Shown: piece by piece, positions 6,901 to 56,304 of the stretch | How the letters are laid out: each line of letters opens with the position of its first letter | Position numbering within the stretch: the stretch's first letter is position 1 | Assembly: GCA_021815445.1 (NCBI GenBank) | Contig: JAKAGM010000001.1 | Span: forward strand, 659,710 to 723,709 | Length of the DNA stretch: 64,000 nt | Source of the DNA: a bacterium | GTDB lineage: Bacteria; Patescibacteriota; Patescibacteriia; UBA10025 | Direction of reading: 5' to 3' | Notes under the pieces: model-generated | What the model saw: only the letters and a program-made list of their open reading frames with translations | What the model was told of the DNA's origin: nothing | The model's database searches: none | Made by a program: the position numbers and the translations under genes

Positions 6901-7582
6901 GCATGATAATGCGGGTCAAGAGTACGACCACGAGGATGACCATCACGACGAGCGCGACGACGACGAGCGCGAGAGCGAGCACTGCGCCGCCGAGAAACTC
7001 TCCCCCCGTCGGCGGTGTCGTGGTGTTGCGGAATTTCAGGATATTATCGAGCTGGAACATCGTGGTAAAGTTGCCCGCGGCGGCGTCTTTGAACGCATTA
7101 ACAAAGGTAAGCATCACGACCTGTCCGGCGTCGATAAAAAAGCCCGCGATGAATTTCGACAGGTTGATGAGGATTGCCATGAGGATCAGCTTGCCGAGAA
7201 GGCGCTGGTATTTGTACTGCTCGAGGCGGAGGATGGTGCCGAACGCGATAACAAGCAGGACAACGATAAAGAACATGTTCGACACGTCGCGGACGATGAC
7301 CCAGCCCGTTTGCACGGCTGGCGTATTCACAAAGTCGTTGTACTGCGCGATGTTGATGAGGAGGCCGATCACGATGAGCAGGAGCTTGCCGAGGAGTTGG
7401 ACTATCGAGAGGATAATTTCCGCGATGACGCTCAGCACGCTGTCACCGATACCCGCCGCCGATGCCGGCAGGGCAAGCGTAAGTAACGACATACCGCATA
7501 CGACAAGCAGGGCGAGTGTGAACGCCCGTATTCGGGGGTCTGATGACCGGAATAGCTTGAGTTTTGAGAAAAAGGATTTCAA
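3914..7582 (-). CDS. TrbL/VirB6-like polytopic membrane protein with ~850-aa charged coiled-coil C-terminal extension
   Basis: 1222 aa. Signal-like N-terminus followed by at least 6 strongly hydrophobic helices (LLGKLLLIVIGLLINIAQ, FFIVVLLVIAFGTIL, LALVVVALVVMVILVVVLL, IAFFIWLALTV and others). Then a long Lys/Glu/Asp-rich hydrophilic tail. Architecture and operon context match VirB6/TrbL. Confidence 0.55.
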   Translation of the reverse strand: MKSFFSKLKLFRSSDPRIRAFTLALLVVCGMSLLTLALPASAAGIGDSVLSVIAEIILSIVQLLGKLLLIVIGLLINIAQYNDFVNTPAVQTGWVIVRDVSNMFFIVVLLVIAFGTILRLEQYKYQRLLGKLILMAILINLSKFIAGFFIDAGQVVMLTFVNAFKDAAAGNFTTMFQLDNILKFRNTTTPPTGGEFLGGAVLALALVVVALVVMVILVVVLLTRIIMLWILIVLSPLAYILAVFPTAQKYSSQWWSAFWKQVVTGPVIAFFIWLALTVTVNTTPQVVRTVQNLPKDVDTQAVSGTAGDKSLAASVSQASTAPNILSFIIGIAMLVGALMVAQQAGGIAGGMAGNAIARLRKAGSAPLKLAASPFAAAKYGLGRGAAKIGRTLRESENLSFLTPDFWKGFSKRGERLTEESKTLAAGKGEFFSEKFFKGKKAAFDRAEAARRVVINTKMSEFNKDLGKAGESRQAMQDLARRAFYTGGHEGDISKQAFGELATGKGNLDDVYYAFGELYHKDKNFKTDVDEKFETLGFNPEEMFEKYSANNVRDFKMSFLGLDKKFLKKENAIAASAEDQHKLRAMASMSEAAKDVGHWEQYDTAKDAETGAYYIMDDEERVNEILGEAKKQPMRAFLNKLSPHVTRQRVWQEQRDENGNLTGKWDYSADNYAPEEGTFENTMYRKLLGGQHVAEMRQMQSRYSDQMVGKYFDENGNIVSTDEEAEKRGFHARDGKTAVEDLKADLMKLYESNPTSTKAFWSQKFLKKPDASPEKDRGNAYPWEEGYKEKVKPSEIDEHRRILDQEIHFSDVDNTLKQYGITDTRAPIKLRDDLASTELATRFGQKMIPRELVIARAQEMQRDKELKWDGERYKPGTEARGEEVDQEIEQLKDELSGNDLSPQEKSEREGKLKKLTEERDKIRGYWSEDTEGVANEISGILTNEAREDMRKVLDGTIASLTNAEGEKLGKDQQRELADKLMQLGPSAASMTPTSVPPDVERQRKTFETSQIRNLQKEHAAQMDAREAERAPEDRQTAEKASEEALGDLWRAVNERRRHLVEELGRTPLDEDRAPIQKEIDRLDSQLSSAQFQQNMPSRESISGISQGGAFLDINALSEKVREALETSTGTIDDFSKLAGEMEKSLGGLIGTLDKASKGMGDIDKKRTQGLNETLGEMRSNAATGASTGFSGNQVQQRELLLQLDRLNKVMKDQLTRGSTKGET

Positions 7583-10600: not shown

Positions 10601-13600
10601 CTCGAGCTGGTAAAGACCAGGTCGGCACTCGATGAGGGGATACACGGCTGGCCGGAACAGTCGGAGGGACCGTTTGGACAGCGTTTCTTCAGATCGTTGG
10701 AGCATACGTTTACAGGCGTCAGCGATGCAATCAGCGTGCAGATGCCGTTGATGCAGTCTGAATCTTTCACGCAGGTTGCGCCGGTGTCTGAACACGCCTT
10801 GAGCCCTACGCATGCGCCCGTAATAGGATCGAGTTTGTTGCACGGCTGCCGTTCGAAGCACACTTGTTCCTGGCTTCCTGACGCGGCCTTCACCGTGGTC
10901 CCGGTCTTGCATTCCAGCCAGGTATTACATACCCTGTCGCGCTGGACTTTGACAAGCTGGTTAGAGTCGCAATCGGGGGCCGCCGGAGTCAGGGGATTGT
11001 TGTCGCAAGCTCCTGACGGGACACTCCCGTCATTTGTGCCCTTGGCATAGAATGTCGCCGGCGGAGAGTTTGTGTCGTAAAAAAGTCTGCATCCCTCTTG
11101 CTGGTTGACCACGCCGTTGCACGATTTCGTGTCTGTTGACTGGGCAAGATTGTAGTGCGCCGCACACGATGCTACGGGAACGCAGCTGCCGCCCGCGCAT
11201 TGGGGGTTGGCATTGCTCAGAACGCAGGGATGCCCGACACCGCATATGCCCTCGGGGTTAAGGATGTCGCATTCTTGCGCGTTGTGAGCCCCTCCGTTGC
11301 AGAACGCCGTCGTGTCGCAGAATGCTCCCGGCGAACCGGATGTTGCGCTGCACCGTCCGGCATTCGACTGGCCCGCCGGGATATTAACATCGCATCCTTT
11401 GGGATCGAGAGGATCGCGGTATTCTGTGCATCCGTTCTGCTCGGCGGGGCACGTCCCCACCATTCCGGGCCCCACAGATGAGACCGTGTTTTGCGGGCCG
11501 CAGCCTATGGTCGTGCCGGTAACAAACCAACCAGCCGTTTTGGTGCCCGACGGCGCCACATACTGGCATGTCCTGCCTCCGGGGTCCTTGAAATAGCTCA
11601 ACCCCGTATCGGTCTTGAATTCCTGACATCCGCTCTCTTCCTGGTGGCACAGCGAGGTCGCATATTGGTCGGGATCATTGATCAGATACGTTGTCTGGTA
11701 TCCGCTTACGACATTATCAGCGTTGATTGTCGGCTTGCCCATTTTGGTACAGCCCGCTTGCGCTGCCTGGCATTGCACCGCCGGGTCATTGACCACGGCA
11801 ACGAGCGTATCGCCGGGAATACTGATCGACTGCGGGAAAGGAACCGGCGTGAATGTATGAGATACTACATCATCATGAAGCAGCGTTACATCATTTCCGT
11901 CCACCGTTCCGTCGCCATTCATGTCCATAATAGCCCACGGGTCAGGCCTGTTGATGCCGGGATGGCATGTCTGTCCCGTGCCGCAGACCGCCGTGGGATC
12001 ATCAGGATTGCACGAAGTGGCCGTGTTTGCCAACGGCCCCGTCGTACACCTCCCGTCATAGTAGCTCTCAATGAGCTTAAGGTCTGTCTGGTCGACCACA
12101 AGATCGTTGTTATAGTCTCCGCGCGGCCGTTTCGTGACCTGGACGCTTTGGTCGAAAGGATAATCACCGTTATTCGTCTGGATCATCGCCTCACAGCCGA
12201 CAGCGTCGGATTTGCAGATCTTGGAGAATGATTTGAGATAGGAAACCTGGCCTTCGCGATCACGGTAGGCGCTGCAGTTCTCATATCCGGAACACTGCGT
12301 CGTCGTGCCCTGGACGCGGAAAATATCATCAGTGACTTCCTGCAGCTGGATGTTATCGAGGAAAAACGAATTGTTGCCGCCGATGAAGAGTATACTGCCC
12401 GCGGGGATGTCCTGGTTGACAAAGAGCGGCCCGAGAGAATACTGGTTCCAGTTTCCTTGGCGCGCTATGGCCGTCCCTGAGAATTTCGAGTTAGGAATCA
12501 TGACTCCTGTGCCGTCATACAGCGCGCTCTCAATGCTTGTGTCATTTGCGCCTCCGGCGGCCCAGAAGGTCAGGATGTACGAGTGGTCGCGTTGGATAAG
12601 GGTATCAATGACTGTCGAAGCGCCTGTCGGCAAAGGGAAGACTACCATCGAGTGGCCGCCTGCCTGGGCGGCATTCGTGCTTGGGTTGAGGGCCGGATCC
12701 GCATTGGATGACCATGGCGCGATAGTCCCTCCCTCAAAATCAGATGAAATAATCGTACGGACATTATTCCCCGCCGAGCCCTTGTATTCCCGACAGCCTG
12801 CGAATGCTGCGGAGCATGTCAGGCCTTCCCCGGGTACCATATGGTACGTTACGTTATTACCTGCCGCCGTATCTATAGAATTCTTAAACGGATGGCAGTC
12901 ATCGGAGACAAAGATGAGTTTCGAGCGAAGACGGTAGGTTACCAGCCCCGAAGCATCGTAAAATTCCGTGCAATCAGGGTTCTTTTGGAGATCGTTAACG
13001 GTGCAAACCGCCGCAAGATGATTTTCAACGATACCGTCGCCGTTCTCATCGAACGGGACGCCGTCGACGCAGTTGGGATACCTGTTGGTCGATGAAGGGG
13101 TATCGGGTCCGAGATTCGTACATGGGGCGTAGTTCCCTCCCGCTTCCGCTGTCTCGCTTCTTAGCAGTCTGAACTCTTTGAGCTGGTATCCTGACTCCTC
13201 GTTCCCCACCCATGAATAGTAGCTTTGCGCGTTTGATCCCGCGTCAGCGGGCTTCACGCACTGCCTGATGAAGCTGTAGTACTCCAGTCCCTCGCCGCCC
13301 CGTGCGACTTGGTCAAGATTCGTGTATTCCTCGCAGCCCACCTGGGTCGCCGGGCAGGACTTGCCGGTTGTAGAAACAAATGATACCGGCTCCTTTGCCG
13401 GACGTATCGGGGTATGGTCTATCGGCATCTCGCGGTACGCCTTGCATCCCACAAATGCCGCCGGGCACTGGTCGCATGAGCCCGGATCATTAGGATCGCA
13501 TGATGCTGAGTCGGTAATCTTGCCCGTCACCGGGATGCTCCCGTCAAGCGGAGTGTATAAATTACAGCCGACATCATCCATCGAACAGCTCTTTCTGGCG

Positions 13601-16233
13601 CCGTTAAGATACGTCTTGTTAACCGTCGCATAATCCCCGTATGCAGAGGTCGCTCCGCCTTCCTCGAGCTGGACATCGTCAATAACAATCGTACACCCGT
13701 CGATTGCGTTAATGACGCCGTTGACTCCCGTTCCTTTGAGTCCCCGTGTAAATGTCGCCGTACGGCTGTATCGTTGCCATGCATCCTGCTTATAGGTTAC
13801 CGTCGAGGACGTTAAGCCGTTCTTATCGACAGCCCAGTCTTCATAGGGATTAAAGTTTTCAATATGATTGCCCCCGTCCGCTGACGTCCGGCCATCCGCG
13901 CATTGAGAGAGTTTTGCGTAGTAGGAGAAGGTGAAAGTTCTGCCCCCTACCGGCTGCAGCGAATCAAAAGGAGCGGGCGCATACCATGATGGACCGGGAC
14001 CGCCGATGAGTTTCATGGCGTATGAACCGCTATAGGCGTTCTTGGTCACATCGAGAGACTGGGCGGAATTGCCTATGTCATAACCGTCTAGCGCAGGTCC
14101 GCGATCATCGACCCCGTCGTCAATTTTACTGTCAGTGATAATGGATTTGTCGAAGAATTCAAAGCTCGAATTGCGGGCAAGGTTAGTCCCCAATCCCGGT
14201 TTGGTGCGGATAAACTCAGAGCATCCCGCGGCAGCGACGTCGCACGCCGGTGCATCCCTGTCGAATGCGATCCTATTTTGTTGTCCGGTTGAGCTGAGCC
14301 CGAAGTCGCACGCCCAGTTTCCTTTGCTGTCCTGTTCTTGACAGTACCACTGGCATCCGGCGTTATTTGCGTTACAGCCGTTTTTTTCCGTCGTATTCTG
14401 GAGATACGAGACCGACTGGCCTTTGGGGTTGGTAAACGTCTTGCAGCTTGCGTATTGCGCGTCGCAGGCCTGGCCTTTGAATTGCCAGACGTCCCGCTCC
14501 TCGGTGCAGTAGCCGTAGCGCTGGCACGAGCCGTCAGGGTTCTCAATGATGCAGGTCTGCTGGTCGACACAGCCCGTCTGCCGCGTTACCTGCTCTTCGC
14601 GGGGGGTAACGTCGGCTTTGTCGACTGTTCCTTGGGTTGCGAGCTGTTCATCGCCATTCTGATCCACCCAGTTTTGCGTGAGAGTTTGCTCGGTTGCCCC
14701 TTCGCGCTTGCAAAAGACTTCGGGAGCTTTGAGAGTCCAATTCGGATCGACGAGTCCGCAGAAAGGCGAATACGAAATTGTCTCGGAGCACGTGCCATCA
14801 GGCGCGCCGTCGCCATTGGTGTCAGGGCATACAAGGTCGCTCGAGCAGGTCTTTGTCTTGTCATTTGAACACACCTTTTGGCCGCAGTTGTTGAATTTGT
14901 CGGCGACTTCTTTGAGGGAGAAACTGCTCTTGGAAAAATTCTTGATATATTCCGCGGCGAGTTCCCACCCGACAGGAATGATTCTGTAGGTCCTCAAGAT
15001 GACAAGGGAACGGTACGGGTAGCCATTGATGTACTCAGGCTCCTGCCCGTCGGCGTTGTAGCCAAAAGCCTTATTGCCGTCCAGAAGTCCGGCGTCCATC
15101 GCCTCCCGCAAGGTGAGCTTCTGCTGGATCGCCTGCGCGAAGCGGTTATCAATGATGCAGTTGCTGTAGCCCGGGTTTGACGGACAGCTCGCGAGGTCGC
15201 TGACCACGTCCACAGTACCTCCGGTAAGATAATCCGGCTGGGCCAAGGTCGAAAAAATACTTTTTGCAGTTGCGATACCGCCGCCCTGGGTGTTGAAAAG
15301 CTGGGAAAAGAATCCCGCGTTTGTCCCGGGATTAAACCCTTGGCTTGATGAAAAAATTCTCTGTAGAAGCTTCGAGACTAGCGTATTTGAAAATACCCCG
15401 AAAGCGTCAGCAAGAGGGGTGCCAGTCTGCTTAGTTACCGCCTCGAAAGACTGCTGTAGCGGGAGCGTAGCGGCATACTCAATGAAACTTGCTGGCGTTT
15501 TAACCTCTCCTGTTATGGGAGACACCACTGATTTGAATCCTGTGATACCAGTAAAGAGCGCGCTGTCCCTCTGCTTTTGCTTGGCCTCCTCCTGGTTCTT
15601 AATAAGATCGTTTTTTATCTGGAGAAAACCACCAAATTCGTTCTGCTCAGGATTAAAATTGTATGAAAAGTCAATGAGTACTTGATTGGTATTTTTCTGG
15701 TAGCTTTTATCCAGGTTGTTCCCGATCTTTGTTACAGTACACTTCCCGCCGAGCTGGGTCGGCTCTCGCAACTTCTGCGCGAAAATTCCCAGCTGCACTT
15801 TGGTCTGGAGATCAATCGGTTCGCAAAGATTTTTGCCAAAATAGCTTGTCGAGAGTGTATTGAGGAAATCCCCTCCCGCGGCGTCACCGATATCCTGGAT
15901 CACCTGCAGCGGTTTCGTATAAAAGAGAGGCTTCTGCCCTGTCCCTCCCGAGGCAATGTATATCGCCGTATCGTATGCCACTCTATTAAGGAAGTTACGG
16001 AGTGCGTTCTTATACGCAAGGTCTGCAGCCGTTTTTAAAGCTTTTGTGATTGCGTTGTCTCTCTTCAGAGCAAGATTCTCAAGTATTATTACCATCGAGG
16101 GACTTACCCCAATCTGCGCTTGCGCTCGATCAGTAAATATTCCAGTCGTCACGCCGATGACACTGATGAAAATTGCAGCGATGATCAATCTCTGGAAATG
16201 CTTTTTTGTACGTCCTGAGAATCGAGAGCTCAT
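7636..16233 (-). CDS. giant (2865 aa) cysteine-rich extracellular/surface protein
   Basis: Uninterrupted 8.6-kb ORF with an N-terminal signal-anchor (IIAAIFISVIGVTTGIF). Very many Cys in EGF/knottin-like spacing. Dockerin-like Ca-binding repeats (DVNGDG, NNDLVVDQTDLKLIESYY, DMNGDGTVDGNDVTLL). At least two beta-sandwich CBM/laminin-G-like modules. Confidence 0.8.
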   Translation of the reverse strand: MSSRFSGRTKKHFQRLIIAAIFISVIGVTTGIFTDRAQAQIGVSPSMVIILENLALKRDNAITKALKTAADLAYKNALRNFLNRVAYDTAIYIASGGTGQKPLFYTKPLQVIQDIGDAAGGDFLNTLSTSYFGKNLCEPIDLQTKVQLGIFAQKLREPTQLGGKCTVTKIGNNLDKSYQKNTNQVLIDFSYNFNPEQNEFGGFLQIKNDLIKNQEEAKQKQRDSALFTGITGFKSVVSPITGEVKTPASFIEYAATLPLQQSFEAVTKQTGTPLADAFGVFSNTLVSKLLQRIFSSSQGFNPGTNAGFFSQLFNTQGGGIATAKSIFSTLAQPDYLTGGTVDVVSDLASCPSNPGYSNCIIDNRFAQAIQQKLTLREAMDAGLLDGNKAFGYNADGQEPEYINGYPYRSLVILRTYRIIPVGWELAAEYIKNFSKSSFSLKEVADKFNNCGQKVCSNDKTKTCSSDLVCPDTNGDGAPDGTCSETISYSPFCGLVDPNWTLKAPEVFCKREGATEQTLTQNWVDQNGDEQLATQGTVDKADVTPREEQVTRQTGCVDQQTCIIENPDGSCQRYGYCTEERDVWQFKGQACDAQYASCKTFTNPKGQSVSYLQNTTEKNGCNANNAGCQWYCQEQDSKGNWACDFGLSSTGQQNRIAFDRDAPACDVAAAGCSEFIRTKPGLGTNLARNSSFEFFDKSIITDSKIDDGVDDRGPALDGYDIGNSAQSLDVTKNAYSGSYAMKLIGGPGPSWYAPAPFDSLQPVGGRTFTFSYYAKLSQCADGRTSADGGNHIENFNPYEDWAVDKNGLTSSTVTYKQDAWQRYSRTATFTRGLKGTGVNGVINAIDGCTIVIDDVQLEEGGATSAYGDYATVNKTYLNGARKSCSMDDVGCNLYTPLDGSIPVTGKITDSASCDPNDPGSCDQCPAAFVGCKAYREMPIDHTPIRPAKEPVSFVSTTGKSCPATQVGCEEYTNLDQVARGGEGLEYYSFIRQCVKPADAGSNAQSYYSWVGNEESGYQLKEFRLLRSETAEAGGNYAPCTNLGPDTPSSTNRYPNCVDGVPFDENGDGIVENHLAAVCTVNDLQKNPDCTEFYDASGLVTYRLRSKLIFVSDDCHPFKNSIDTAAGNNVTYHMVPGEGLTCSAAFAGCREYKGSAGNNVRTIISSDFEGGTIAPWSSNADPALNPSTNAAQAGGHSMVVFPLPTGASTVIDTLIQRDHSYILTFWAAGGANDTSIESALYDGTGVMIPNSKFSGTAIARQGNWNQYSLGPLFVNQDIPAGSILFIGGNNSFFLDNIQLQEVTDDIFRVQGTTTQCSGYENCSAYRDREGQVSYLKSFSKICKSDAVGCEAMIQTNNGDYPFDQSVQVTKRPRGDYNNDLVVDQTDLKLIESYYDGRCTTGPLANTATSCNPDDPTAVCGTGQTCHPGINRPDPWAIMDMNGDGTVDGNDVTLLHDDVVSHTFTPVPFPQSISIPGDTLVAVVNDPAVQCQAAQAGCTKMGKPTINADNVVSGYQTTYLINDPDQYATSLCHQEESGCQEFKTDTGLSYFKDPGGRTCQYVAPSGTKTAGWFVTGTTIGCGPQNTVSSVGPGMVGTCPAEQNGCTEYRDPLDPKGCDVNIPAGQSNAGRCSATSGSPGAFCDTTAFCNGGAHNAQECDILNPEGICGVGHPCVLSNANPQCAGGSCVPVASCAAHYNLAQSTDTKSCNGVVNQQEGCRLFYDTNSPPATFYAKGTNDGSVPSGACDNNPLTPAAPDCDSNQLVKVQRDRVCNTWLECKTGTTVKAASGSQEQVCFERQPCNKLDPITGACVGLKACSDTGATCVKDSDCINGICTLIASLTPVNVCSNDLKKRCPNGPSDCSGQPCIPSSSADLVFTSSSDQTNNISKMQNISGLAKAGVNWGFLNVCTNDLSKQCSNDGECGGGKCGIDRLIGGDYPYAVMHELGTFGSTTKDLIKDGDFWDSNYMMSQEIKPNDSTTQWKGGETYRGWTAIGADTKVALTERSDDGSIPGNPLLNENNVLAVHPGSGMWDGVSYNLGNKIQNKAEYSISMKQEYEQGNATQRDVIQVEFEYLDVTGNRIGIDSFGWLTGSTSWQEYVVGNVTTNIPVGTVKTLLKIIQGPSHCTADPTNINLCSTDSSPVNNGPSVILCLARPPVGSTCAGSERTFYLDDVSLKPVLGVQSGSNTGPFSTPDKLTRTCRMYPRDDSKLCEYTDFDGVQYRGWKGYCIEKDPKNPDICINWWPIDIISGESSIFGQEQQAGYQERTPLYFCELARGNSQIPLPSSTLPATPGYVLNTRINAVAPCYDGDPCVYAKLTNDCSGTSYTIMNVAPTDVPFQGANLILSGDDYASNCMTDSTNASKFICDTPGSTAITDPRIIPANAAEKAINRTDIEAIKVTLNSKVREWNNESFYIKPDSFYQNNPKIWHGGTTEEGFDFNYTPQCSAEHAPMGFGMRVRFDDNGFVLGYDVRAGLPKSGPSAITIVINYQLREPCDQIVKVAGDEVVSWANRVSNGSGYQTQLNNNYGYNADLAPFGAIPPLVGTPADWFGKEHNTPLYVQVPYADKTKRSSQTRAGLPYACDGKTPVGPVFTQSICGQAICMGGDFNGSDCKTLEAQRNCENKGGYCSGILPPVTVTESLNPVHDAEYTLRRLFAIAYEGWVWDNTKGQYVRDDFTTDVTSWQTQFDNMSICPNNQRPAPPSDYCAVQPAVTNFILTVNGKDYSNASAPAGGWTIPGVTIGSTIKMSFTENVDKEQMPLDTILIDWDGKDGSVPSDNQGSMAWGFAPRSDPKNPNTFFYTVTKTGDYTPRVEIIDHWGAGSNVCISVGGSCTFVGQRPGTRQASSSGKPDDSVGWYGFNGVIKVTD

Positions 16234-22574: not shown

Positions 22575-23105
22575 TTAATTCTTCTTTTCCAGAAAAAACC
22601 GCGCTGGCTCCTGCGTGAGATCCCATGAACGGGCCTGGAATGCTTCTCCGTACTTCTCTACATACTTTACCGCGAAGCTCTGGAGTGCGTCAAAAAGATC
22701 AAGGTCGAGAATCCCTGCGACAGCGGTAACTACCTTATGCACCGCTGAAGCCCGTTCTGCTGAGGTTTTGAATCCATAGTGCAGGTTTTGCCTGACCAGA
22801 TTGGTCATGAGGAATACCAACATCACGCTGGTATCCTCATCCGCACCGATAGTCAAGGGGCGGGAAAGGGAATCGCCGTTAGCGACAATGTAAATAGGAA
22901 TCAGGGGATCTGTGTGCTCTTCCCACGGATAGCCGGAAAATACCGGGATTGCTTTGAGGATTTGCTCGATATATATATCATATACCTCTTCAAAGTTCCC
23001 GCCGGCGGTAATAATATCCTGCCATACTTCAGAGAACGGCTTGTCTCCCTTATACAGTCTTTCAGCGTAGTCAAAACTATAATGAATTTCGGTCTTTGGG
23101 ATCAT
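22575..23105 (-). CDS. hypothetical protein
   Basis: 176-aa ORF with compact spacing to its neighbours. No recognisable motif. Confidence 0.45.
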   Translation of the reverse strand: MIPKTEIHYSFDYAERLYKGDKPFSEVWQDIITAGGNFEEVYDIYIEQILKAIPVFSGYPWEEHTDPLIPIYIVANGDSLSRPLTIGADEDTSVMLVFLMTNLVRQNLHYGFKTSAERASAVHKVVTAVAGILDLDLFDALQSFAVKYVEKYGEAFQARSWDLTQEPARFFLEKKN

Positions 23106-23199: not shown

Positions 23200-26100
23200 T
23201 CAAACCACAATACTCACCAGCCGTCCTTTAATGTATATGACTTTCTTCGGTTGCTTGCCGTCCAGCCATTTAAGCACTTTTTCGCTCGAGAGCGCAAGTT
23301 TCTTGGCTTCGTCCTCGGAAATATCTGAGGCAACTTTCATTTGGTCGCGGACTTTGCCGTTTATTTGGACTACAATAGTAATTTCGTCCTCGACGATCAA
23401 TTTTGGATCGAAAGAAGGCCACGGTTCTTTGGAAATACTTTCTTTGTGACCTAGCTGCTCCCAAAGTTCCTCTGAAAGGTGGGGGGCGAAGGGTGAAAGT
23501 AGTCGTAACAAAACTTCAAAATCTTGCTTTAAAAATTCGGCCGGTGCCTCTGCTACTGCATTCGTATACTTCATATATTCTGAAACAGCAGTGTTGAACT
23601 TGAACTGTTCGATGTCCACAGTGATCTTCTTAACTAACTGGTGTGTTCTTTTATTCATGGTCGCCATCGCAGGCGCGGAGACCTGCGCTGGCTGATCGAC
23701 AAATACATTCCATACTCTCTCCAAAAATCTTTTTACCCCGATCATCCCCTGCGTACTCCACGGCTTGGCGTCCTCGAATGGACCCATAAACATTTCATAC
23801 ATGCGCATGGTGTCTGCCCCGAACTTCTTGATGACTTCATCGGGATTGATGACGTTGCCCCGGGACTTGGACATCTTCTGTCCGTCTTCGCCGAGAATGA
23901 GCCCCTGGTTTTTTAACTTTGTGAACGGCTCGTCGCCGTGTTTCTTTACGAATGACTTTGGCACGACCTCAATGTCGCACAGGAACTTATAGATGAATCG
24001 AGCGTAGAGCAGGTGAAGTACTGCGTGTTCCGCACCGCCGATATACATATCTACTGGCAGCCATTTCTCTAGCTTTTTCGGATCGGCAAGCTTTTTGTCA
24101 TTCTTCGGATCGCAGTAGCGCAGGAAATACCAGTTCGATCCGGCCCACTGGGGCATGGTATTCGTCTCACGCTTTGCCGGCTTGCCGCACTTCGGGCATT
24201 TCACATTCACCCATTTTTCAATACTGGCCAAGGGCGACTCACCTGTGCCGGTGGGTTCGTACTTTTTTACGTTGGGAAGTTCGACGGGCAAATCTTTTTC
24301 GTGAACAGGATTCACTCCGACGGGCAGGGGGTTCTTTCCAACTATTTCTTCGAGAACTTCGGGGAATGTATATGCATGGCCATTTTTCAATGAGAAATGA
24401 TTGCGCCCGGGGAGGAGATGATAGTCGCCGCGGAGTTTCTTCTTATACCATTCCGGGATTTCGGCGGGAATGTACGCATCATTGTCCGAATAATAATATG
24501 AAATTTTTTCCGTGTTTTTTTGCACATCGGCGTACCGAAGTTCGGCCTCATGGAATTTCCTTTGCCAAGCCGCGGGATTATCGGGATGCTGCTTCTGGAA
24601 TTCGGTCCAATCCATCTCTGTGCTGGTTGGAGCCACTAAAATCAGTTTTTTGATCTTTTTCTTGCGTGATGCCAAAAAATACATTGCCGCGATGCCGCCG
24701 AGTGAATGACCGATCAGTATTGTATGTTCATCAAATGCATTCTTCAACGTTTCCAAAGCCGTTAACCATTGTTCACGGTCAGGCTGCTTCGAGTCAGGCA
24801 TATCGGGTACTATAACCTGATGTCCAAGTTCGCGTAGTTTGGTCGCCAACCAGTCATACCAGTTCGCCTTGCCATTGCTCCCCGTACCGTGAATAATCAC
24901 AATAGTTTCTTTTTTCTGCTTCCGACAATGTTCACAATGCACAATCGGTATCGGTTCGCCCCAGTACCGCTGTCGGCTAAATAGCCAATCGCGAAGTTTA
25001 TATTGCACTTTGAATCTGCCGCGACCGTCTTTTTCGAGACGCGCAATGATTTTTTTCTTACACTGGACCGTCGTCAATCCGTCGTACTCTCCTGAGTTTA
25101 TTGCTACTCCTTCGCCGATAAACGCCGCCGGCTTTACATAATATTGCCAAATTTCTTTGGCATTTAAATGGGTAACGGCATCCAATACCTTGTGTTCAGA
25201 CACCCAGACTGGCTCATGCTTTTCTTTTTCCTCATTGTGAATCTGATGTCGTGTCTCATCGACTAAATCAAACACGACACCGCTAGCCATGCCGTATCTG
25301 TTTTCATTCTTATGCTTGGCAAAAAAGGTGAAATGAGTCTGCCAGTTTATTTCCTCGACAAACTTGAGATTGATATAGCCTGTTTCTTCGGCTATTTCGC
25401 GTTTCGCGGCTGTTATCAAGTCCTCCCCGTCTTCTACTCCGCCGACGACAAACGATACCCAATCATATTTTTTCCACCGCAGGCAAAGGACGTCATTGTT
25501 CTTCGGATTCCTGACGATACCATACACGAGCTTGCGCCTCACCATCGGTTTGTCCGATCGCAATTTCAAGTCTTCGGTATTCTGAAAAAAAGGAGCCATC
25601 ACCTGCTTGACAGGCAGTGAATATTTTTTCGCAAACTCAAAGTCCCGCTGGTCATGCGCCGGCACCGCCATAATCGCGCCAGTGCCGTAAGACATCAAAA
25701 CGTAGTCCGCCGCCCATATAGGGATTTCCTGTCCATCAACAGGGCGAATCGCTTTTATCCCCTTAAGCTCAACGCCGGTTTTTACTTTCACTAAATCGGT
25801 TCTCTCTAAGTCCGACTTATTTACGGCGGAATGAATATATTTTTCAACTTCGCTTTTATTTTCAACCATGCTGAGGGCATCCTGGACAAGCGGGTGCTCA
25901 GGGGCAACCACCATATATGTAGCGCCGAATATCGTGTCGGGTCGCGTAGTAAAAACAGTGAGCTCCCTGGTTTGTAGTTTCGGGTTTTGAATTTTGAACA
26001 CGATTTCGGCGCCTTCGCTCTTCCCGATCCAGTTCTTCTGCAACAGTTTGATGTTCTCCGGCCAGTCAACTTTGTCTAAATCGTTCAGCAACCGTTCGAT

Positions 26101-26700
26101 GTACCGTTCGTCGGTGATTTTCACCAGCCACTGTTTGATTTTTTTCTTGGTGACGGGAGTCCCGCACCGTTCGCATTTGCCGTCGATGACCTCTTCGTTC
26201 GCCAGACCCGTCTTGTCTTTCGGGCACCAGTTGATCGGGGCGTCAGCCTCGTAGGCGAGGCCGTGCTCGAAAAGTTTGAGGAAGATCCACTGCGTCCATC
26301 GGTAATACTTCGGATCGGAGGTAATAACTTCACGATCCCAGTCATAGGAAAAGCCGAGCGACTGAATCTGCCGCCGCATGTTCTCGATGTTTTTCGCTGT
26401 CGTCACCGCGGGATGTGTGCCTGTTTTGAGGGCGTAGTTTTCCGCCGGAAGTCCGAATGCGTCGAACCCCATCGGGTGGAGCACCTCAAATCCTTTCATC
26501 CGCAGGTAGCGGGAATAAATATCCGACGCCGTGTATCCCTCGGGATGGCCGACATGCAGACCCTCGGCTGACGGATACGGGAACATGTCCAGAATGTACT
26601 TCTTTTCCCGTCGTGAAGTATCGCTGGCATGGAATGACTTCTCTTTTGCCCAACGTTCTTGCCACTTTTTTTCTATGCTCTGGTGGTCGTAACGGTCCAT
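23200..26700 (-). CDS. leuS: leucyl-tRNA synthetase with inserted NUDIX and alpha/beta-hydrolase domains
   Basis: HIGH motif (HVGHPEGY), KMSKS motif (KMSKSRGN), CP1 editing domain (TTRPDT, AHDQRD), anticodon-binding and C-terminal domains all present. 1166 aa versus ~800-880 for canonical bacterial LeuRS. Extra NUDIX box [23 protein letters not shown] and GHSLGG serine-hydrolase module. Confidence 0.9.
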
Positions 26701-34003: not shown

Positions 34004-37000
34004 TTACATCCCGTAGGCGGCAAAGATGCTGACACCGCCGCGGAACTTTGTATTGAGGGCAAAGAACCGGGAAATCACGCGGCCGTTTTGGTTGAATACG
34101 CTGATCTGCGGACCTAATCCCGCGCCGGGCCCTGTCACAATTTCCGCTTTACCGTCACCGTCAACGTCTGCGGCAAACATCGTGAAGCTTCCTTTCAGGC
34201 TTGAGCCGTAAGCGTTAAATTGCGACTTTGCCACTCCCTTGTTGTTGAAGACCCTGACCTGAGATATGGCGCCACCCATCGGCATAGCGATGAATTCGTT
34301 TGTGCCATCGCCTCCCATGTCCGCAACAGCCACATTAACTCCTCCTCTGAAGCCGCTTGGGAAGGCCATAAATCTCGCGAGTTGCTTGCCGTCTTTATTG
34401 AATGCTGCAACCTGGGGGCCGAGCCCTGTTTTCGGCGCTACAACGACATCGTCGGTACCGTCACCATTGATATCTCCCGTCGTCAGATTGTATCCGCCTC
34501 GAACTCCCACTGCATATGCGTTGAATCGTTTCACCAGTTTTCCATCACCATGGAAGATTGCAACCTCAGGACCGCCGTTTGATGCCGGTGTACCGATGAT
34601 ATCGGCTTTTCCGTCGCCATCGACATCGCTGACCGCGAGGTTGACCCCGCCTCGGAAGCCCGATCCGATGATGAAGAATTGTTTTAGGAGCTTGCCGTTG
34701 CCATCAAAGATGCGCACTTGAGGACCCGCGCCCGCAAGCGGGACAGCGATAATCTCATCTTTTCCGTTGCCATCGATATCAGCAACAGCGACATGAATTC
34801 CCGTTCTGAGACTCGAACCGTAGGCATTGAAATTCTTGAGTAACTTCCCGGCCTTAGTGAAGACGCGAATTTCCGGACCGGCGCCGACTCCGGGAGCAGT
34901 GACAATCTCGTTGGCCCCATCGCCGTTGACATCGCCAGTTGCCACCTCAAGCCCCACACGGAGAGATGAAGCGTAGGCGAAAAAGCTTACGACTTTCTTT
35001 CCGGTTTTGTCGGTGACATAAACCTGCGGACCGCCTTTTGACGCGGGAACCGTGGCTATGTCAGCCGTACCGAGACCAGCCGCCGCAGATCCGCCCGAAG
35101 CGACCACAAATGTCGTGAAGTGGTTAGTCTGAATAGTAATGGTATTCGAGTCCTTATCGACGGTGATGCCTATGGGGTCTTGGTACGCATTGGATGTCGA
35201 ATCGAAGTACTTGCTGACAAGCGTATCTTCGTTAATACCCAGTTCATCGAGCTGATCCTGCGTGTAAGTGAACTTGATCGTCACGTTTGAATTAAACGTG
35301 GTAATCGCATTGTTGCTTGAGTCAGTCGCGGTAAGTTCATACCCCACGCCGAATGGCTGGACGTTCTTCATCTTATACATATTGCCTACCGTCGGCGTTG
35401 CCGTAACGCTCACATTCGAGCCCGATGATCCGAGAGCTCCGGAAGGAATTGTGATTGTTACACCATTCTCAAGAGCTATTACCTGCGCCGATCCCGCGTC
35501 AAACGTGGAACTCACTGGTGAAGGAACGGTAAAGCTCGCACCCTTAAGGCTGAAATTCTGCGTGATGCTAGTCTGAGTAGAAATTGTAATTGTCGCTTCG
35601 TCGGATCGGTAGAACTTGTTGCCGTCAAAGCTGTCCGCTCCGCAGTGCCAAGTGCCTGCTTTGTAGTTGACCGAGTAGCTGCCTCCAAACTGCACAGGTC
35701 CGCCGGTGAATCCGCCATTTTCTTCCCAGCAGTGGACGAAGCCGATGTTGATCGGCACATTACCCACCTTAACGCTCCCGCTCATGGTCCCGAGCGCTCT
35801 GCCGAGTTTGAGCGTGATACTGGCAGTTGACGCACTGGTCAGATCAACTTTCTGAAAGTCTGCAGGTATGTACGAACTGCCGGGAGGTAACCCCATTCCG
35901 ACCTGATACCTGTGCCCCTTGAGGACATTCAAGGTGAATGTCCCGTCAGGATTGGTTTTGGTATCCGCATGAAGTTGGTTCTTGAAGCTCTCCTCAGTTT
36001 GGACGCTCTGGTTCTCTTGCTCTACGCCGTTGTCGGCGAAGACAAATGCGTCAATTCCGTTGCCGCTCGGATCAAGTACGCGTCCGGTGATTGTCGCATT
36101 GGCTTTGGTTACCGTGATATTGAGCGTCGTGGTTCCAGCAGCAATTGTTAATGATGTAGGATCAGGGGGTTTCATCATAAATCCGTTTCCAGGATTGATG
36201 TAGTACCCCATGTGATATCCGCTTCCAGAGAGAAGACTTACGCTAAATGTGCAGTCAGGCTTGATGTCTCCGCCTCTCCATGATCCGTTCTTTTCGAAGT
36301 GGACATCGCCGAACCAGCCGCCCGAAGAAGAACATGAGGTAATGCTGGCTCCATTCTGATCCAGAATTCTGCCTTGAACTGTCGCATCATTGCTTCTTAC
36401 TTGGATATTCTTGGTCGAAGTCGTATTCGCAAATACAGCTACATTTTGACTGTCAAGCGAAGAATATGGCGAGTTAGGGGGTGTACCGAGTGATAATGTA
36501 TAGGTTGACGCTACGGTGCTCGGCACACTTAAGGAGAACGAACCGTTCTGGCAGTCAACCGGACCGCCGTACCCGGGACCGGGGTTGCCGATAGTCGTGG
36601 CTGACGCCGGCTGTGCATTGATCCATGCGCAGAATCCAGTGATCACCGTTCCGGACTCATTAACGACAAATCCGCTGATAGTGGCATCGGCATATGTCAG
36701 CTGTATCGTGCCGACATTAATTGTTGCATTATCGTCGGTGACATTCGCATCGATTGGCTGGCCGCTGTAAACATATTTTGAATTGCGGCCGGGCCCCTGA
36801 TCAAGATTGACCCCCCACATACCGGCGGTAACCGCGAGAACAAAATTCCCGTTTGAATCACTCTGGGTATTGCTCCAGCCCGGCTGATTATGCATAAAGG
36901 CATTGAGGTATACGCCTCCGACACCGGTACCGTCGGATTTCACAACTTTTCCTGTTATTTTCGCTGATTTCGATTTCGCAGTGATCGTACCAACATTCTT

Positions 37001-38683
37001 CGTCTCATTGTCGCCTATAGTCACTGACATCTCAGGGAATGATAACGTGTTGTCAGGGCTAAAAACGCTCACCCGGTATGTTCCGGCTTTGACGTTCACG
37101 CTGAACGTGCCGTCTGGCCTGACCTGCGAGTTGTTACCGACACCGTCCTGAGTCCTCACGTCAACATTTGCATTTGTCATCGGCGAACCATCGGGTTTTA
37201 ATGCCCTCCCCGTGACTGAAGCGTTGGCAACAGTTACAGTTATGTTAAGTGTCTTGTTTTCCACTGCGGAATTTGTCGCAAAGTCAACCATCTGGGGCGG
37301 ACCGGAAAAAAACCAGTCAGGCGCGGGCGCCCCGGGGCCCATATTTGGATTGACCATAATGTTCCAGCTGCCTCCTGAGAGTGTCAGGGTGTAATTCCCG
37401 CTTGCATCCGTTGTTGCCTGGCTGAACCCTGATCCGTTTTTGTTTGCATTGATTTGCGCGCCAGCAACAGCCAAACCATTACTCTTAGTCACTTTTCCTG
37501 TCAGAAATTTTGACGCCTGAACAAAAGTGAGGTTCTTCACTACAACAGTTGCTCCAATAGTGATAGAAGCAGAATCGGGAGACACGTATCCGCTAGAACC
37601 CCATGGAGACATAACATCCAATTTATATGTCCCTGCGGGAAAACCGCCGATGAGATAGGTGCCATCCTGGCCGCTCTGGGCATTTTGGTTTACCGACCAA
37701 TCGTCAGTATGGATTTGGACGTTTGCATTCGCGACAGGTGTTGCCCCGTCCGGTGCATATACAGTACCTGTGACTTGGGCAGTAGTGAGGCGCACCTCGC
37801 CGACGTTGAGTAGTGTTCCTGAAGTTACGGAAATTGTCCGCGAAACAGGCGACGTGAAACTAAGGCCCTGGACCATGCATTGGAGAGTGTATGATCCGGT
37901 CGCCATGGTGCCAAATCTGAACACACCGCTAGGATCAGCATTTGTGTTCATCTGAACACTGTGGTCCTGGTTATAAATATTGCAGTTAACATTGCCACCA
38001 TGTGAAAAGTCGACGGCATTCCCGCTCGGATCTTTGATAGTACCGGTAACATTTGGAGCAGAAAGGCTGACGGTTTGGCCGGTGAGAACGGTGCCCGCAA
38101 AGCTCACCGTCAATGTTCCGGTCGTATAGGGCGAACTTTCCGGAGCTTGTGCTTCAATAATGTACGTCCCGCTTGCTAAACCGCCGAATTTAAAGTTTCC
38201 GCCGTCGTCAGTGTTGGTTCCTGAATTGAACGACCAGTCATTGGTCCTGATCATGACATTTGTTCCGGGAACAGGCGTTACTCCATCGGGATTTGTCACA
38301 GTACCGGTAATACTCGGCGTTGTAAGTTTGATATTTCCAAGGTCCACCGCCGAAGTATCAATAGTTATCAAAAAGGGCGCCGGTCCGGTGTAATTTCCGT
38401 CTGTTCCGGCATACGATACTTGGACAGTGTATTGTCCCGACGCAACATTCGTGATAGAAAACGTCCCATTATTATTCATTGGCCCGCCATTACCGGGTCC
38501 TGGATTCTTTGGCGAAAGGCTCACGAAACCGCCGGCCTGCGTGAGTGCGGCACCGGTAGGACTGACAACTGTTCCGCTGACCACTACGCCCGAGGCATGG
38601 ACAGTTTGCGGGTGGGCCGCTACGAGGGAAACGGCAATTGCCGCGACAGTGACCGCCCAGTAGAGATAAGATTTCTTATGCAT
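34004..38683 (-). CDS. giant (1559 aa) secreted protein: multiple carboxypeptidase-regulatory/Cna-B-like beta-sandwich repeats plus C-terminal FG-GAP-like beta-propeller
   Basis: Signal peptide (VTVAAIAVSLVAAHPQTVHA). More than 10 repeats of the type GTVTNPDGVTPVPGTNVMI...GTYIIEA. C-terminal 6-7 repeats such as DVNGDGANEIVTAPGVGAGPEIRVF and DIDGNGKDEIIAVPLAGAGPQVRIF (FG-GAP/VCBS-like). Confidence 0.8.
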   Translation of the reverse strand: MHKKSYLYWAVTVAAIAVSLVAAHPQTVHASGVVVSGTVVSPTGAALTQAGGFVSLSPKNPGPGNGGPMNNNGTFSITNVASGQYTVQVSYAGTDGNYTGPAPFLITIDTSAVDLGNIKLTTPSITGTVTNPDGVTPVPGTNVMIRTNDWSFNSGTNTDDGGNFKFGGLASGTYIIEAQAPESSPYTTGTLTVSFAGTVLTGQTVSLSAPNVTGTIKDPSGNAVDFSHGGNVNCNIYNQDHSVQMNTNADPSGVFRFGTMATGSYTLQCMVQGLSFTSPVSRTISVTSGTLLNVGEVRLTTAQVTGTVYAPDGATPVANANVQIHTDDWSVNQNAQSGQDGTYLIGGFPAGTYKLDVMSPWGSSGYVSPDSASITIGATVVVKNLTFVQASKFLTGKVTKSNGLAVAGAQINANKNGSGFSQATTDASGNYTLTLSGGSWNIMVNPNMGPGAPAPDWFFSGPPQMVDFATNSAVENKTLNITVTVANASVTGRALKPDGSPMTNANVDVRTQDGVGNNSQVRPDGTFSVNVKAGTYRVSVFSPDNTLSFPEMSVTIGDNETKNVGTITAKSKSAKITGKVVKSDGTGVGGVYLNAFMHNQPGWSNTQSDSNGNFVLAVTAGMWGVNLDQGPGRNSKYVYSGQPIDANVTDDNATINVGTIQLTYADATISGFVVNESGTVITGFCAWINAQPASATTIGNPGPGYGGPVDCQNGSFSLSVPSTVASTYTLSLGTPPNSPYSSLDSQNVAVFANTTSTKNIQVRSNDATVQGRILDQNGASITSCSSSGGWFGDVHFEKNGSWRGGDIKPDCTFSVSLLSGSGYHMGYYINPGNGFMMKPPDPTSLTIAAGTTTLNITVTKANATITGRVLDPSGNGIDAFVFADNGVEQENQSVQTEESFKNQLHADTKTNPDGTFTLNVLKGHRYQVGMGLPPGSSYIPADFQKVDLTSASTASITLKLGRALGTMSGSVKVGNVPINIGFVHCWEENGGFTGGPVQFGGSYSVNYKAGTWHCGADSFDGNKFYRSDEATITISTQTSITQNFSLKGASFTVPSPVSSTFDAGSAQVIALENGVTITIPSGALGSSGSNVSVTATPTVGNMYKMKNVQPFGVGYELTATDSSNNAITTFNSNVTIKFTYTQDQLDELGINEDTLVSKYFDSTSNAYQDPIGITVDKDSNTITIQTNHFTTFVVASGGSAAAGLGTADIATVPASKGGPQVYVTDKTGKKVVSFFAYASSLRVGLEVATGDVNGDGANEIVTAPGVGAGPEIRVFTKAGKLLKNFNAYGSSLRTGIHVAVADIDGNGKDEIIAVPLAGAGPQVRIFDGNGKLLKQFFIIGSGFRGGVNLAVSDVDGDGKADIIGTPASNGGPEVAIFHGDGKLVKRFNAYAVGVRGGYNLTTGDINGDGTDDVVVAPKTGLGPQVAAFNKDGKQLARFMAFPSGFRGGVNVAVADMGGDGTNEFIAMPMGGAISQVRVFNNKGVAKSQFNAYGSSLKGSFTMFAADVDGDGKAEIVTGPGAGLGPQISVFNQNGRVISRFFALNTKFRGGVSIFAAYGM

Positions 38684-44657: not shown

Positions 44658-44730
44658 TGGACCTCAGGGGGCTCGAACCCCTCACCTCTTCCATGCCATG
44701 GAAGCGCTCTACCAAATGAGCTAGAGGCCC
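44658..44730 (-). tRNA. tRNA-Ala(GGC)
   Basis: Manual cloverleaf: acceptor GGGCCTC/GAGGTCC with the G3:U70 Ala identity pair. Anticodon stem CTTCC/GGAAG, loop ATGGCAT. T-arm AGGGG-TTCGAGC-CCCCT. CCA not encoded. Confidence 0.85.
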
Positions 44731-44736
44731 AGAACT

Positions 44737-45231: not shown

Positions 45232-45239
45232 TTGTTACT

Positions 45240-56265: not shown

Positions 56266-56304
56266 ATGGGGCAGGAAGAAATATCACCGACTCAGAGACT
56301 GTAA

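Follow-up and report, generated by a model that had tools for sequence, protein, structure and literature searches.

The locus raises the question of whether one bacterial protein can combine a leucyl-tRNA synthetase (LeuRS) with two further complete enzymes, and what those enzymes might be doing there. Aminoacyl-tRNA synthetases (aaRS) are textbook cases of domain accretion, in which the editing domain is itself an insert in the Rossmann fold. To our knowledge, the added modules of bacterial aaRS are tRNA-binding or editing domains, and we know of no earlier link between tRNA and the hydrolase families described below. The window analyzed here is a stretch of 64,000 nucleotides from a Patescibacteria (CPR) bacterium, and the LeuRS gene and its features are listed in Table 1.

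Table 1 Features of the LeuRS gene in the window; Tth, residue numbering of Thermus thermophilus LeuRS
Feature	Residues (aa)	Position in window	Strand	Remark
Complete LeuRS gene	1166 aa + stop	23200..26700	(-)	Hosts two guest domains
HIGH signature (HVGH), class I catalytic core	49-52	26545..26556	(-)	Motif read in ORF
CP1 editing domain, first segment	222-368	25597..26037	(-)	PF13603 aa 222-374 = model positions 1-146/185
Guest 1, complete NUDIX domain	369-525	25126..25596	(-)	Nested in CP1 editing domain; replaces 13-aa loop Tth 363-375
Nudix box [23 protein letters not shown]	420-442	25375..25443	(-)	Fits GX5EX7REUXEEXGU
Predicted metal-binding residues	Glu435, Glu438, Glu439	in 25375..25443	(-)	In Nudix box
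Return to host, C-terminal CP1 part and catalytic core	526-592	24925..25125	(-)	Aligned with Tth 376-442
First zinc knuckle CEHC (C589/C592)	589-592	24925-24936	(-)	Closes host segment aa 526-592
Guest 2, complete RBBP9/YdeN-family alpha/beta serine hydrolase	593-794	24319..24924	(-)	Between Tth 442 and 443, directly after CEHC
Nucleophile elbow GHSLGG	664-669	24694..24711	(-)	Motif read in ORF
Predicted catalytic triad	Ser666, Asp741, His768	24703-24705, 24478-24480, 24397-24399	(-)	
Second zinc knuckle CPKC	835-838	24187..24198	(-)	CEHC partner, 243 residues apart in sequence
KMSKS loop	942-946	23863..23877	(-)	Motif read in ORF
Anticodon-binding domain, followed by C-terminal tRNA-binding domain	1015-1129	23314..23658	(-)	PF08264 89.8 bits

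The reading frame runs through all 1166 codons with zero internal stops, as the initial annotation had it, and the bacterial LeuRS equivalog model (TIGR00396, leuS_bact) assigns the product to its family at 1063.6 bits (cut-off 548.4). The protein matches T. thermophilus LeuRS (PDB code 1h3n) with an E-value of 8.9e-219, and shares with the bacterial enzymes of the T. thermophilus and Escherichia coli (PDB code 4aq7) type the core, the ZN1 module, the CP1 editing domain with its T-rich and Asp motifs, and the anticodon-binding and C-terminal domains; the C-terminal part, including the anticodon-binding domain, aligns with Tth 637-876. Unlike these enzymes, it carries two additional enzymes (approximately 360 aa) in loops, one of them within CP1, and the leucine-specific domain that precedes KMSKS in the T. 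thermophilus and E. coli proteins (Tth ~581-636) is absent, as the alignment with 1h3n shows. The editing domain scores 209.5 bits with PF13603, and its motifs are located at aa 251-256 (the T-rich TTRPDT) and aa 339-353 ([15 protein letters not shown]). In an alignment of 62 homologues with and without guests, residues H49, G51 and H52 of HVGH, T251, T252, R253, D255, T256, D350 and D353 of CP1, and K942, M943, S944 and K945 of the KMSKS loop are invariant, and C835 and C838 of CPKC are nearly so. The host has kept its synthetic and editing motifs, with HVGH, KMSKS and the CP1 editing domain all in place as originally read; the host is a bacterial-type LeuRS of a Patescibacteria bacterium, and apparently a housekeeping enzyme. 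The full-length AF2 model is confident (pLDDT 90.2, pTM 0.83), both guests included (81-97 pLDDT per 10-residue block). The view that the inserts occupy surface loops of an otherwise intact LeuRS is supported. The insert coordinates first proposed proved accurate within about 15 aa in that alignment.

The first guest matches the Pfam NUDIX family (PF00293) at aa 390-508 with 52.1 bits in the full protein (gathering threshold, GA, 21.1) and with 56.8 bits when the insert is scanned alone, and the complete insert with a perfect Nudix box that had been proposed is thereby recovered. Its placement after the editing domain and ahead of the return to the core was slightly wrong, however. The insert splits the PF13603 model, of which positions 1-146 of 185 lie upstream in our protein, and the fragmentary sequences P0223 and P0191 have parts of PF13603 on either side of the NUDIX domain; hence, the guest lies inside CP1 rather than after it. 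NUDIX-in-CP1 is a second-level nesting. Free-standing NUDIX proteins of ~160 aa align over ~95% of the insert. Its AF2 model (pLDDT 94.9) retrieves NUDIX structures with Foldseek at probability 1.0 and has 493 PDB Nudix matches at E<=0.001. The fold neighbours include Aquifex (3i7u; TM 0.70-0.83, rmsd 2.3-2.5 Å), Chlamydia and human Ap4A hydrolases, MutT1, Rv2985 and RppH, at 15-20% identity. With small Nudix enzymes such as 3i7u, Mycobacterium smegmatis MutT1, E. coli RppH and Chlamydia CT771, the guest shares the alpha/beta/alpha sandwich fold and the canonical Nudix box, but it belongs to a separate small clade found mostly inside LeuRS, and only 15-20% of its residues are identical to theirs. 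The scores remain below the Nudix equivalog cut-offs (25.2 versus 116 bits for RNA pyrophosphohydrolase, NF001938; 25.3 versus 103 for NudB, NF006961), and the sole PDB match by sequence, to lupin Ap4A hydrolase (E 0.0031), is confined to the Nudix box. A search of 1.84 billion proteins returned 424 cluster representatives of the clade at E<=1e-3; among the top 150, 111 are LeuRS and 30 are free-standing, and the sole other host found is a prolyl-tRNA synthetase (ProRS). We assign the guest as a predicted NUDIX pyrophosphohydrolase of ~157 aa that belongs to a small CPR-centred clade and occupies a distal CP1 loop.

The second guest was expected to be an alpha/beta serine hydrolase of YdeN/RBBP9 type lying between CEHC and CPKC, and both the identity and the position hold. 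Ser_hydrolase (PF06821) matches aa 600-781 of the full protein with 66 bits (GA 22), covering model positions 1-166 of 172, and the insert alone with 72.1 bits, so that both guests score above their gathering thresholds. Its PDB relatives include Bacillus subtilis YdeN (1uxo; 4.9e-11) and RBBP9 (1.3e-10), and free-standing bacterial RBBP9/YdeN proteins of ~186-191 aa cover ~95% of the insert with 30-32% identity. The minimal ~190-aa alpha/beta hydrolase architecture, the GxSxG elbow and the Ser-Asp-His triad are those of the family (1uxo; human RBBP9, 2qs9). What distinguishes the guest from its relatives is that it is nested in a synthetase, and that its lid differs: the lid varies in length and sequence among the copies and cannot be aligned with the substrate-anchoring residues of RBBP9 (Glu108/Tyr99, the alpha-amine anchor), and an acidic residue occurs at the column aligned with RBBP9 Glu108 in 26 of the 65 copies. 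The linker between the zinc ligand Cys592 and the first hydrolase strand is only ~6 residues long. Guest 2 is thus a predicted Ser-Asp-His hydrolase of ~200 aa and RBBP9/YdeN type, placed immediately after the first CxxC of the zinc knuckle; the host range of this guest is known from LeuRS-centred searches only.

Conservation across the family points to catalysis by both guests. The nucleophilic serine of the hydrolase guest is kept in 65/65 copies, and Ser, Asp and His are invariant in the corresponding alignment (A4), while Glu16, Glu19 and Glu20 of the Nudix box are retained in 78/78, 77/78 and 78/78 NUDIX copies, respectively. As judged from these alignments, strong purifying selection acts on the catalytic residues of the two guests, which are probably active hydrolases. 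The box deviates in a few copies, e.g., P0033, P0061 and P0069, and one hydrolase copy (P0087, q535) has a GTSAGG elbow.

Within the 120 best homologues of the query, all of them Patescibacteria-like, guest modules are spread over at least nine loop sites, none of them outside residues ~208 to ~882. Six guest types are present, i.e., NUDIX, Ser_hydrolase, Ham1/ITPase, HAD (of the HAD_2 family), a weakly ASCH-like module of 133 aa and a module of 194 aa; NUDIX guests are found at two sites, tandem doublets included, and Ser_hydrolase guests at six. The 133-aa module has weak ASCH matches in 5 of its 12 members (best E 0.0031) and no match in a PDB sequence search, and the Pfam scan gave no match for the 194-aa module or for a 237-aa insert in P0112. 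A LeuRS may have from zero to four guests, and combinations are patchy even between close relatives, some of which have none. Since one type of guest can reside at up to six sites and close relatives do without, the comparison indicates that the guests are dispensable for LeuRS function and that no fixed geometry is conserved. Among 80 species-representative LeuRS loci, 22 contain a NUDIX domain; one LeuRS, from Ca. Magasanikbacteria (L002), has both guests at the same sites as the query at 46% identity, and in none of the 80 loci does a free-standing guest copy adjoin LeuRS. The LeuRS reading frames of L017, L068 and L054 are 984, 820 and 880 aa long, and the upstream match at these loci is an adjoining class I aaRS. 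Free-standing relatives of the guests are found in variable small-gene neighbourhoods and not in translation operons.

The query is therefore one example of a large mosaic family of CPR LeuRS with nested hydrolases. The initial annotation regarded the fusion as undescribed and by implication unique; the former stands, in that our literature searches found no paper describing LeuRS with nested hydrolase guests, whereas the latter does not, the architecture being common among Patescibacteria LeuRS in public databases. The nesting habit is thus widespread in Patescibacteria and apparently undescribed. It shares the principle of domain accretion with other aaRS that have gained enzyme domains, such as ProRS with INS/YbaK-type editing domains, the isoleucyl-tRNA synthetase (IleRS) with a GNAT acetyltransferase domain listed by NCBIfam (NF040702) and the eukaryotic accretions, but differs from them in that the guests are interchangeable generic hydrolases that use many alternative loops, with up to four per protein. 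A 2026 survey of domain insertions names aaRS as favoured hosts and states that the LeuRS editing domain never acts as one (PMC13114784); contrary to that listing, the editing domain of our LeuRS hosts a NUDIX domain. What emerges is an uncultured, genome-reduced radiation that repeatedly nests generic small-molecule hydrolases in a single synthetase, with no more than four per protein and one of them inside the editing domain.

The explanation we favour for this LeuRS, at slightly less than an even chance, is that its guests are captured, tethered clean-up hydrolases. They would have been captured from free-standing genes and then passed on by vertical descent, in the course of which guests were lost, duplicated within the gene or relocated. 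Tentatively, they may be independent hydrolases that stay attached to the synthetase and act on small molecules that arise from or around aminoacylation. The NUDIX guest could act on adenylate-type dinucleotides (Ap4A/Ap3A) or aminoacyl-adenylate-like species, and the RBBP9-like guest on aminoacyl esters or amides whose alpha-amine is free; as a pair, the guests would form a clean-up layer that is added to CP1 editing and does not replace it. Such a role would not require precise substrate channelling, as co-expression and proximity would suffice. The clearance of Ap4A or aminoacyl-adenylate and the additional deacylation suggested at the outset are compatible with the sequences. A link to aminoacylation is suggested by the distribution of the NUDIX clade, which, free-standing copies aside, is found only in LeuRS and one ProRS, and by chemistry, since the NUDIX fold neighbours include Ap4A hydrolases and RBBP9 handles aminoacyl-X substrates with a free amine. 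[quoted passage not shown] Activation of valacyclovir, a valyl-ester prodrug, is a further activity of RBBP9 according to Shenoy 2020, as cited in PMC7730578. Most guests cluster by site, however, and truly independent capture events may therefore be few, which weakens the argument from host specificity. Against the mechanism speak also the Ham1/ITPase, HAD and ASCH-like guests of relatives, which have no obvious aminoacylation link, the changing sites and the dispensability of the guests, the lid of the hydrolase guest, which does not align with the amine anchor of RBBP9, the general preference of insertions for aaRS (PMC13114784), and the position of the NUDIX guest below every NCBIfam equivalog cut-off, at only 15-20% identity to characterised enzymes. 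If the guests do act on by-products or errors of aminoacylation, they would add a novel level of quality control to translation, or of control over the alarmone Ap4A, and the poorly understood bacterial RBBP9/YdeN family would gain a function.

Ranked second, and nearly as likely as tethered clean-up, is that the guests are generic house-cleaning enzymes unrelated to leucylation, for which LeuRS, and above all its CP1 (connective-polypeptide) region, serves as a structurally permissive and constitutively expressed carrier in streamlined genomes. The repertoire of NUDIX, Ham1/ITPase, HAD_2 and weakly ASCH-like guests is a classical house-cleaning set, and the nine variable sites, the patchy combinations in close relatives and the genomic neighbourhoods of the free-standing relatives fit passengers well, as do the documented preference for aaRS as insertion hosts (PMC13114784) and the invariance of the CP1 editing residues, which implies that nothing in the host has been replaced. 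On the other side, the hosts found for the NUDIX clade are LeuRS (111 of the 150 top representatives) and one ProRS; polymerases, translocases and other large essential proteins did not appear among them, and at least six guest families converge on one gene. The aminoacyl-X chemistry of the RBBP9 family, with Leu and Ile among the trapped acyl groups, fits aaRS products notably well, and the short linkers, such as that after Cys592, and the high pTM suggest a fixed rather than floppy attachment. Should the guests prove to be passengers, they would provide a natural data set on loops that tolerate the insertion of whole domains, which is useful for protein engineering.

A bolder version of tethering, which we consider doubtful, would make CPR LeuRS, and occasionally ProRS and other synthetases, a docking platform for interchangeable hydrolase cartridges that form a hitherto unrecognised, tethered quality-control or immunity layer. 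Over evolutionary time, the synthetases would acquire such modules, duplicate them and shift them from loop to loop, with possible roles in a second proofreading of aminoacyl esters or adenylates, control of the Ap4A alarmone where it is made, or the detoxification in situ of antibiotics that mimic adenylates.

Built-in immunity, with the guests detoxifying aminoacyl-adenylate-mimic or nucleotide-analogue inhibitors at their target, is improbable. By analogy with MccF and MccE, which detoxify processed microcin C, the fusion of an aminoacyl-X serine hydrolase and a nucleotide pyrophosphohydrolase to a drug target would be a logical design; NCBIfam also lists the IleRS with a GNAT domain, and the patchy, fast-turnover distribution resembles that of defence and resistance genes; RBBP9/YdeN hydrolases, however, are not homologous to MccF, and Ham1 and HAD guests are not known as antidote enzymes. 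Still less probable are catalytically dead guests, i.e., pseudoenzymes or ligand sensors that modulate LeuRS as structural or regulatory modules. The deviant Nudix boxes and the GTSAGG hydrolase mentioned above would suit such modules, but every catalytic residue is kept in the query and in >90% of the copies, a retention not expected without selection for catalysis. An artefact, whether an assembly chimera, a frameshifted set of genes or an intein-like insert that is spliced out, has nothing in its favour and is effectively refuted already, since the identical protein (P0001) is encoded on nine contigs of independent assemblies (ENA, Logan and NCBI; the longest ~880 kb) in an uninterrupted frame, the same nesting is common to dozens of homologues at 45-70% identity, no Hint/intein family is among the Pfam matches and the inserts correspond end to end to ordinary free-standing enzymes.

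A recent horizontal insertion is not supported, as the inserts are similar to the host gene in GC3 and codon usage. Database entries of guest-bearing LeuRS have been present since 2015, and some are named after the guest, as 'alpha/beta fold hydrolase' or 'non-canonical purine NTP pyrophosphatase', a misannotation that the domain assignments given here correct.

The leuS gene of the window encodes a bacterial-type leucyl-tRNA synthetase (LeuRS; TIGR00396, 1063.6 bits; cut-off 548.4) that matches T. thermophilus LeuRS (Tth; 1h3n) with an E-value of 8.9e-219. It is securely a LeuRS of the housekeeping type in which two intact guest enzymes are nested, a NUDIX hydrolase (guest 1, aa 369–525) and a serine hydrolase of the RBBP9/YdeN type (guest 2, aa 593–794), and belongs to a mosaic family of the Patescibacteria radiation (CPR). 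The query lacks the leucine-specific domain found ahead of KMSKS in the T. thermophilus and E. coli enzymes, query residues 938–942 (window 23863–23890) covering Tth 580–637 in the alignment to 1h3n. Nine contigs, taken from ENA, Logan and NCBI assemblies and reaching 877–881 kb, encode a protein identical to the query (P0001); the gene neighborhood is ordinary for a small-genome bacterium, and the inserts resemble the core in GC3 (0.52 vs 0.48–0.63 in core segments) and codon usage (cosine to core 0.85–0.89; core against core 0.90). A chimera, a frameshift or a recent transfer is therefore unlikely.

Features of the query LeuRS and guests of related synthetases (q, query residue numbering; P, retrieved proteins; GA, gathering threshold)
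Feature	Position	Protein	Remarks
leuS ORF	window 23200..26700, minus strand	query	1166 aa, uninterrupted; ORF reading
HVGH	aa 49–52	query	LeuRS motif
TTRPDT	aa 251–256	query	T-rich editing motif
Second editing motif	aa 339–353	query	15 residues
NUDIX (PF00293)	aa 390–508	query	52.1 bits, GA 21.1; insert alone 56.8 bits
CEHC zinc knuckle	C589/C592	query
Ser_hydrolase (PF06821)	aa 600–781	query	66 bits, GA 22; insert alone 72.1 bits
Guest 2 catalytic triad	Ser666/Asp741/His768	query
CPKC	aa 835–838	query	zinc-knuckle partner
KMSKS	aa 942–946	query	LeuRS motif
NUDIX	q371; q208	about 70 proteins at q371	at q208 single and as tandem doublets of 340–353 aa
Tandem double NUDIX	q208	P0063, P0093, P0104
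Ser_hydrolase	q236, q274, q371, q535, q553, q589
Ham1/ITPase	q236	P0041, P0012, P0029
HAD_2, phosphatase-type	q838	P0063, P0114
133-aa conserved module	q589	P0021, P0024, P0082 and others	weak ASCH matches in 5/12 members, best E 0.0031
194-aa module	q871	P0012, P0029, P0069	no Pfam match
NUDIX in class II prolyl-tRNA synthetase	aa 379–544; gene L088:2906-4837 (8.5-kb contig)	P0186	full length, 643 aa

The insertion points were set by residue-by-residue alignment to 1h3n. Query residues 1–368 correspond to Tth 1–362 and 526–592 to Tth 376–442, so that guest 1 replaces a 13-residue loop; the alignment restarts at query 795 with Tth 443, and guest 2 is thus cleanly inserted right behind the CEHC knuckle. 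Both inserts exceed their Pfam gathering thresholds, in agreement with the domains first assigned to them. The initial annotation also had good coordinates for the inserts, but the NUDIX domain, which it placed after the editing domain, lies inside this domain (CP1): positions 1–146 of the 185 in PF13603, the CP1 profile, precede it in the query, and the fragments P0223 and P0191 carry PF13603 pieces on either side of it. The nesting has two levels, the NUDIX domain being enclosed by CP1 and CP1 by the Rossmann fold, and contradicts a 2026 survey that covered 48,551 insertion events and in which the LeuRS editing domain is insertion-exclusive, with zero host events (PMC13114784).

As judged from sequence and predicted structure, both guests are complete and look active. 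Guest 1 is 36–42% identical to free-standing NUDIX proteins of ~160 aa (P0121–P0125) over 84–95% of its length, and guest 2 is 29–32% identical to free-standing RBBP9/YdeN proteins of 186–191 aa over 92–95%, its best solved relatives being B. subtilis YdeN (1uxo, 4.9e-11) and human RBBP9 (1.3e-10). The model of guest 1 has a canonical NUDIX fold (pLDDT 94.9, pTM 0.88), and both guests are folded confidently in the whole-protein model (pLDDT 90.2, pTM 0.83). In the Nudix box, the metal ligands Glu16, Glu19 and Glu20 are kept in 78/78, 77/78 and 78/78 copies and Arg15 in 75/78; the nucleophilic Ser is kept in 65/65 hydrolase copies, and an 18-sequence hydrolase alignment that includes free-standing members shows no variation in Ser, Asp or His.

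The query exemplifies a phenomenon seen across its family. Its 120 best homologues, all named ones of which are Patescibacteria, range from 791 to 1554 aa; the largest (1518–1554 aa) carry four guests, several LeuRSs have two hydrolase copies, and ~17 have no guest. Inserts of at least 60 aa in at least one protein of the MAFFT alignment define nine sites (q208, q236, q274, q371, q535, q553, q589, q838 and q871), with guest types assigned by scanning representative inserts against Pfam. The sites are confined to residues ~208 to ~882, and none of the nine lies in the anticodon-binding or C-terminal domain. Five map within CP1, whose Tth boundaries we take to be 224–417 from the published structure.

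Neighbor-joining trees from short alignments (760 core columns for the host) show a patchy distribution of guest architectures. The nearest neighbors of the query carry hydrolase–NUDIX–hydrolase (P0002), two hydrolases (P0008) or no guest (P0105), and another near neighbor, P0007, has a hydrolase at the query's NUDIX position. The guest trees give a mixed picture of guest history. The nearest neighbor comes from the same site in 57/60 cases, which implies few ancient insertions per site; one hydrolase subtype, GHSAGG, is found at q236, q371 and q535, the two hydrolase copies of P0087 are sisters, indicating intragenic duplication, and free-standing NUDIX genes nest inside the radiation of LeuRS guests. 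Among 80 species-representative genomes, a less biased sample, 22 LeuRSs carry NUDIX and 3 the hydrolase, and non-CPR LeuRSs are ~800–840 aa long. Both guests occupy the query's two sites in a Ca. Magasanikbacteria UBA11699 locus (L002, 46% identity). By the labels of their database records, the NUDIX-bearing loci L012, L014–L016, L020, L021, L024 and L028 belong to Gammaproteobacteria, Bacilli, Tenericutes, Pacearchaeota or Nanoarchaeota (the last two DPANN archaea); either these are CPR bins under wrong labels or the guest is more widely distributed.

Searched exhaustively with HMMER, 1.84 billion cluster representatives yield only 424 proteins of the NUDIX clade (E ≤ 1e-3). The best 150 comprise 111 with LeuRS sequence, 30 free-standing proteins (≤215 aa) and 9 unclear cases, among them two further LeuRS fragments, a free tandem NUDIX and the prolyl-tRNA synthetase P0186; no non-synthetase host was seen among these 150. 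In P0186 the NUDIX takes the place of a short linker that joins the anticodon-binding domain to the C-terminal domain, and guest capture is thus not limited to LeuRS. At L085:1640-3006 and L086:1686-3052, a free-standing NUDIX-clade gene is immediately followed by a gene for a 284–292-aa alpha/beta hydrolase, the two enzyme classes of the guests as separate genes.

Foldseek neighbors of guest 1 include E. faecalis MutT/nudix protein, M. smegmatis MutT1, E. coli RppH, Chlamydia CT771, human and Aquifex Ap4A hydrolases (the latter with TM 0.70–0.83, rmsd 2.3–2.5 Å) and M. tuberculosis Rv2985, a diadenosine polyphosphatase. Since identity to all of them is 15–20% and guest 1 reaches none of the NCBIfam subfamily thresholds, a (di)nucleoside-polyphosphate substrate is a lead from the model rather than an assignment. 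What is published on the RBBP9/YdeN family hints, by analogy, at hydrolysis of aminoacyl esters by guest 2: RBBP9 is trapped as acyl adducts of single Leu, Ile, Phe, Tyr and Trp, needs a free alpha-amine on its substrate and may act on amides, esters or thioesters (PMC8866121). By the account in PMC7730578, Shenoy et al. (2020) identified it as a valacyclovir-activating enzyme, one that cleaves the valyl ester from a nucleoside analogue. The lid region of the embedded hydrolases cannot be aligned to the RBBP9 substrate pocket. LeuRSs with and without guests share the same, invariant CP1 editing residues, so any guest activity would add to canonical editing, not substitute for it.

We favor, tentatively and at somewhat less than an even chance, a role in tethered clean-up: held on LeuRS, the guests would remove small molecules linked to aminoacylation. 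This is suggested by the restriction of NUDIX-clade hosts to synthetases in the best 150 of 424 representatives, the fact that six or more guest families have converged on one gene, the chemistry of RBBP9 together with Ap4A-hydrolase-like fold neighbors, and short linkers with high pTM. It is quite possible, if doubtful, that the guests are passengers, as the other guests (ITPase, HAD) are house-cleaning in character, the sites variable and the distribution patchy, and synthetases are generally prone to host insertions (PMC13114784). Built-in immunity to adenylate-mimic antibiotics, conceivable by analogy, is improbable; pseudoenzyme modules, contradicted by the motif conservation, are slightly more so, and an artefact or intein can be practically discounted.

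Domain accretion on synthetases is a known principle; a guest-loaded LeuRS would surprise a synthetase specialist. Full-text literature searches turned up no account of NUDIX, RBBP9-like, ITPase or HAD domains within LeuRS or CPR synthetases. Sequences of this kind entered the public databases with the groundwater CPR genomes of 2015 (e.g., KKR13732.1/UniRef A0A0G0RJC7, 1136 aa), and guest-derived record names hide the synthetase: MDD5341768.1 (P0012) is auto-named 'non-canonical purine NTP pyrophosphatase' and other LeuRS records 'alpha/beta fold hydrolase' (misnamed records: P0012, P0009, P0087).

Downstream, leuS is immediately followed on its own strand by a 176-aa ORF (window 22575-23105) with no Pfam match on record. 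Three very large minus-strand ORFs are probably CPR surface proteins: 7636-16233 (2865 aa) and 34004-38683 (1559 aa) have only faint carbohydrate-binding or CarboxypepD_reg/FG-GAP matches, and 3914-7582 (1222 aa) has no Pfam match. The window of this bacterial genome also carries a deoxyhypusine-synthase-family gene (PF01916, 319 bits; 57130-58200) and five minus-strand tRNA genes in two small clusters (44658-45311 and 56194-56995).
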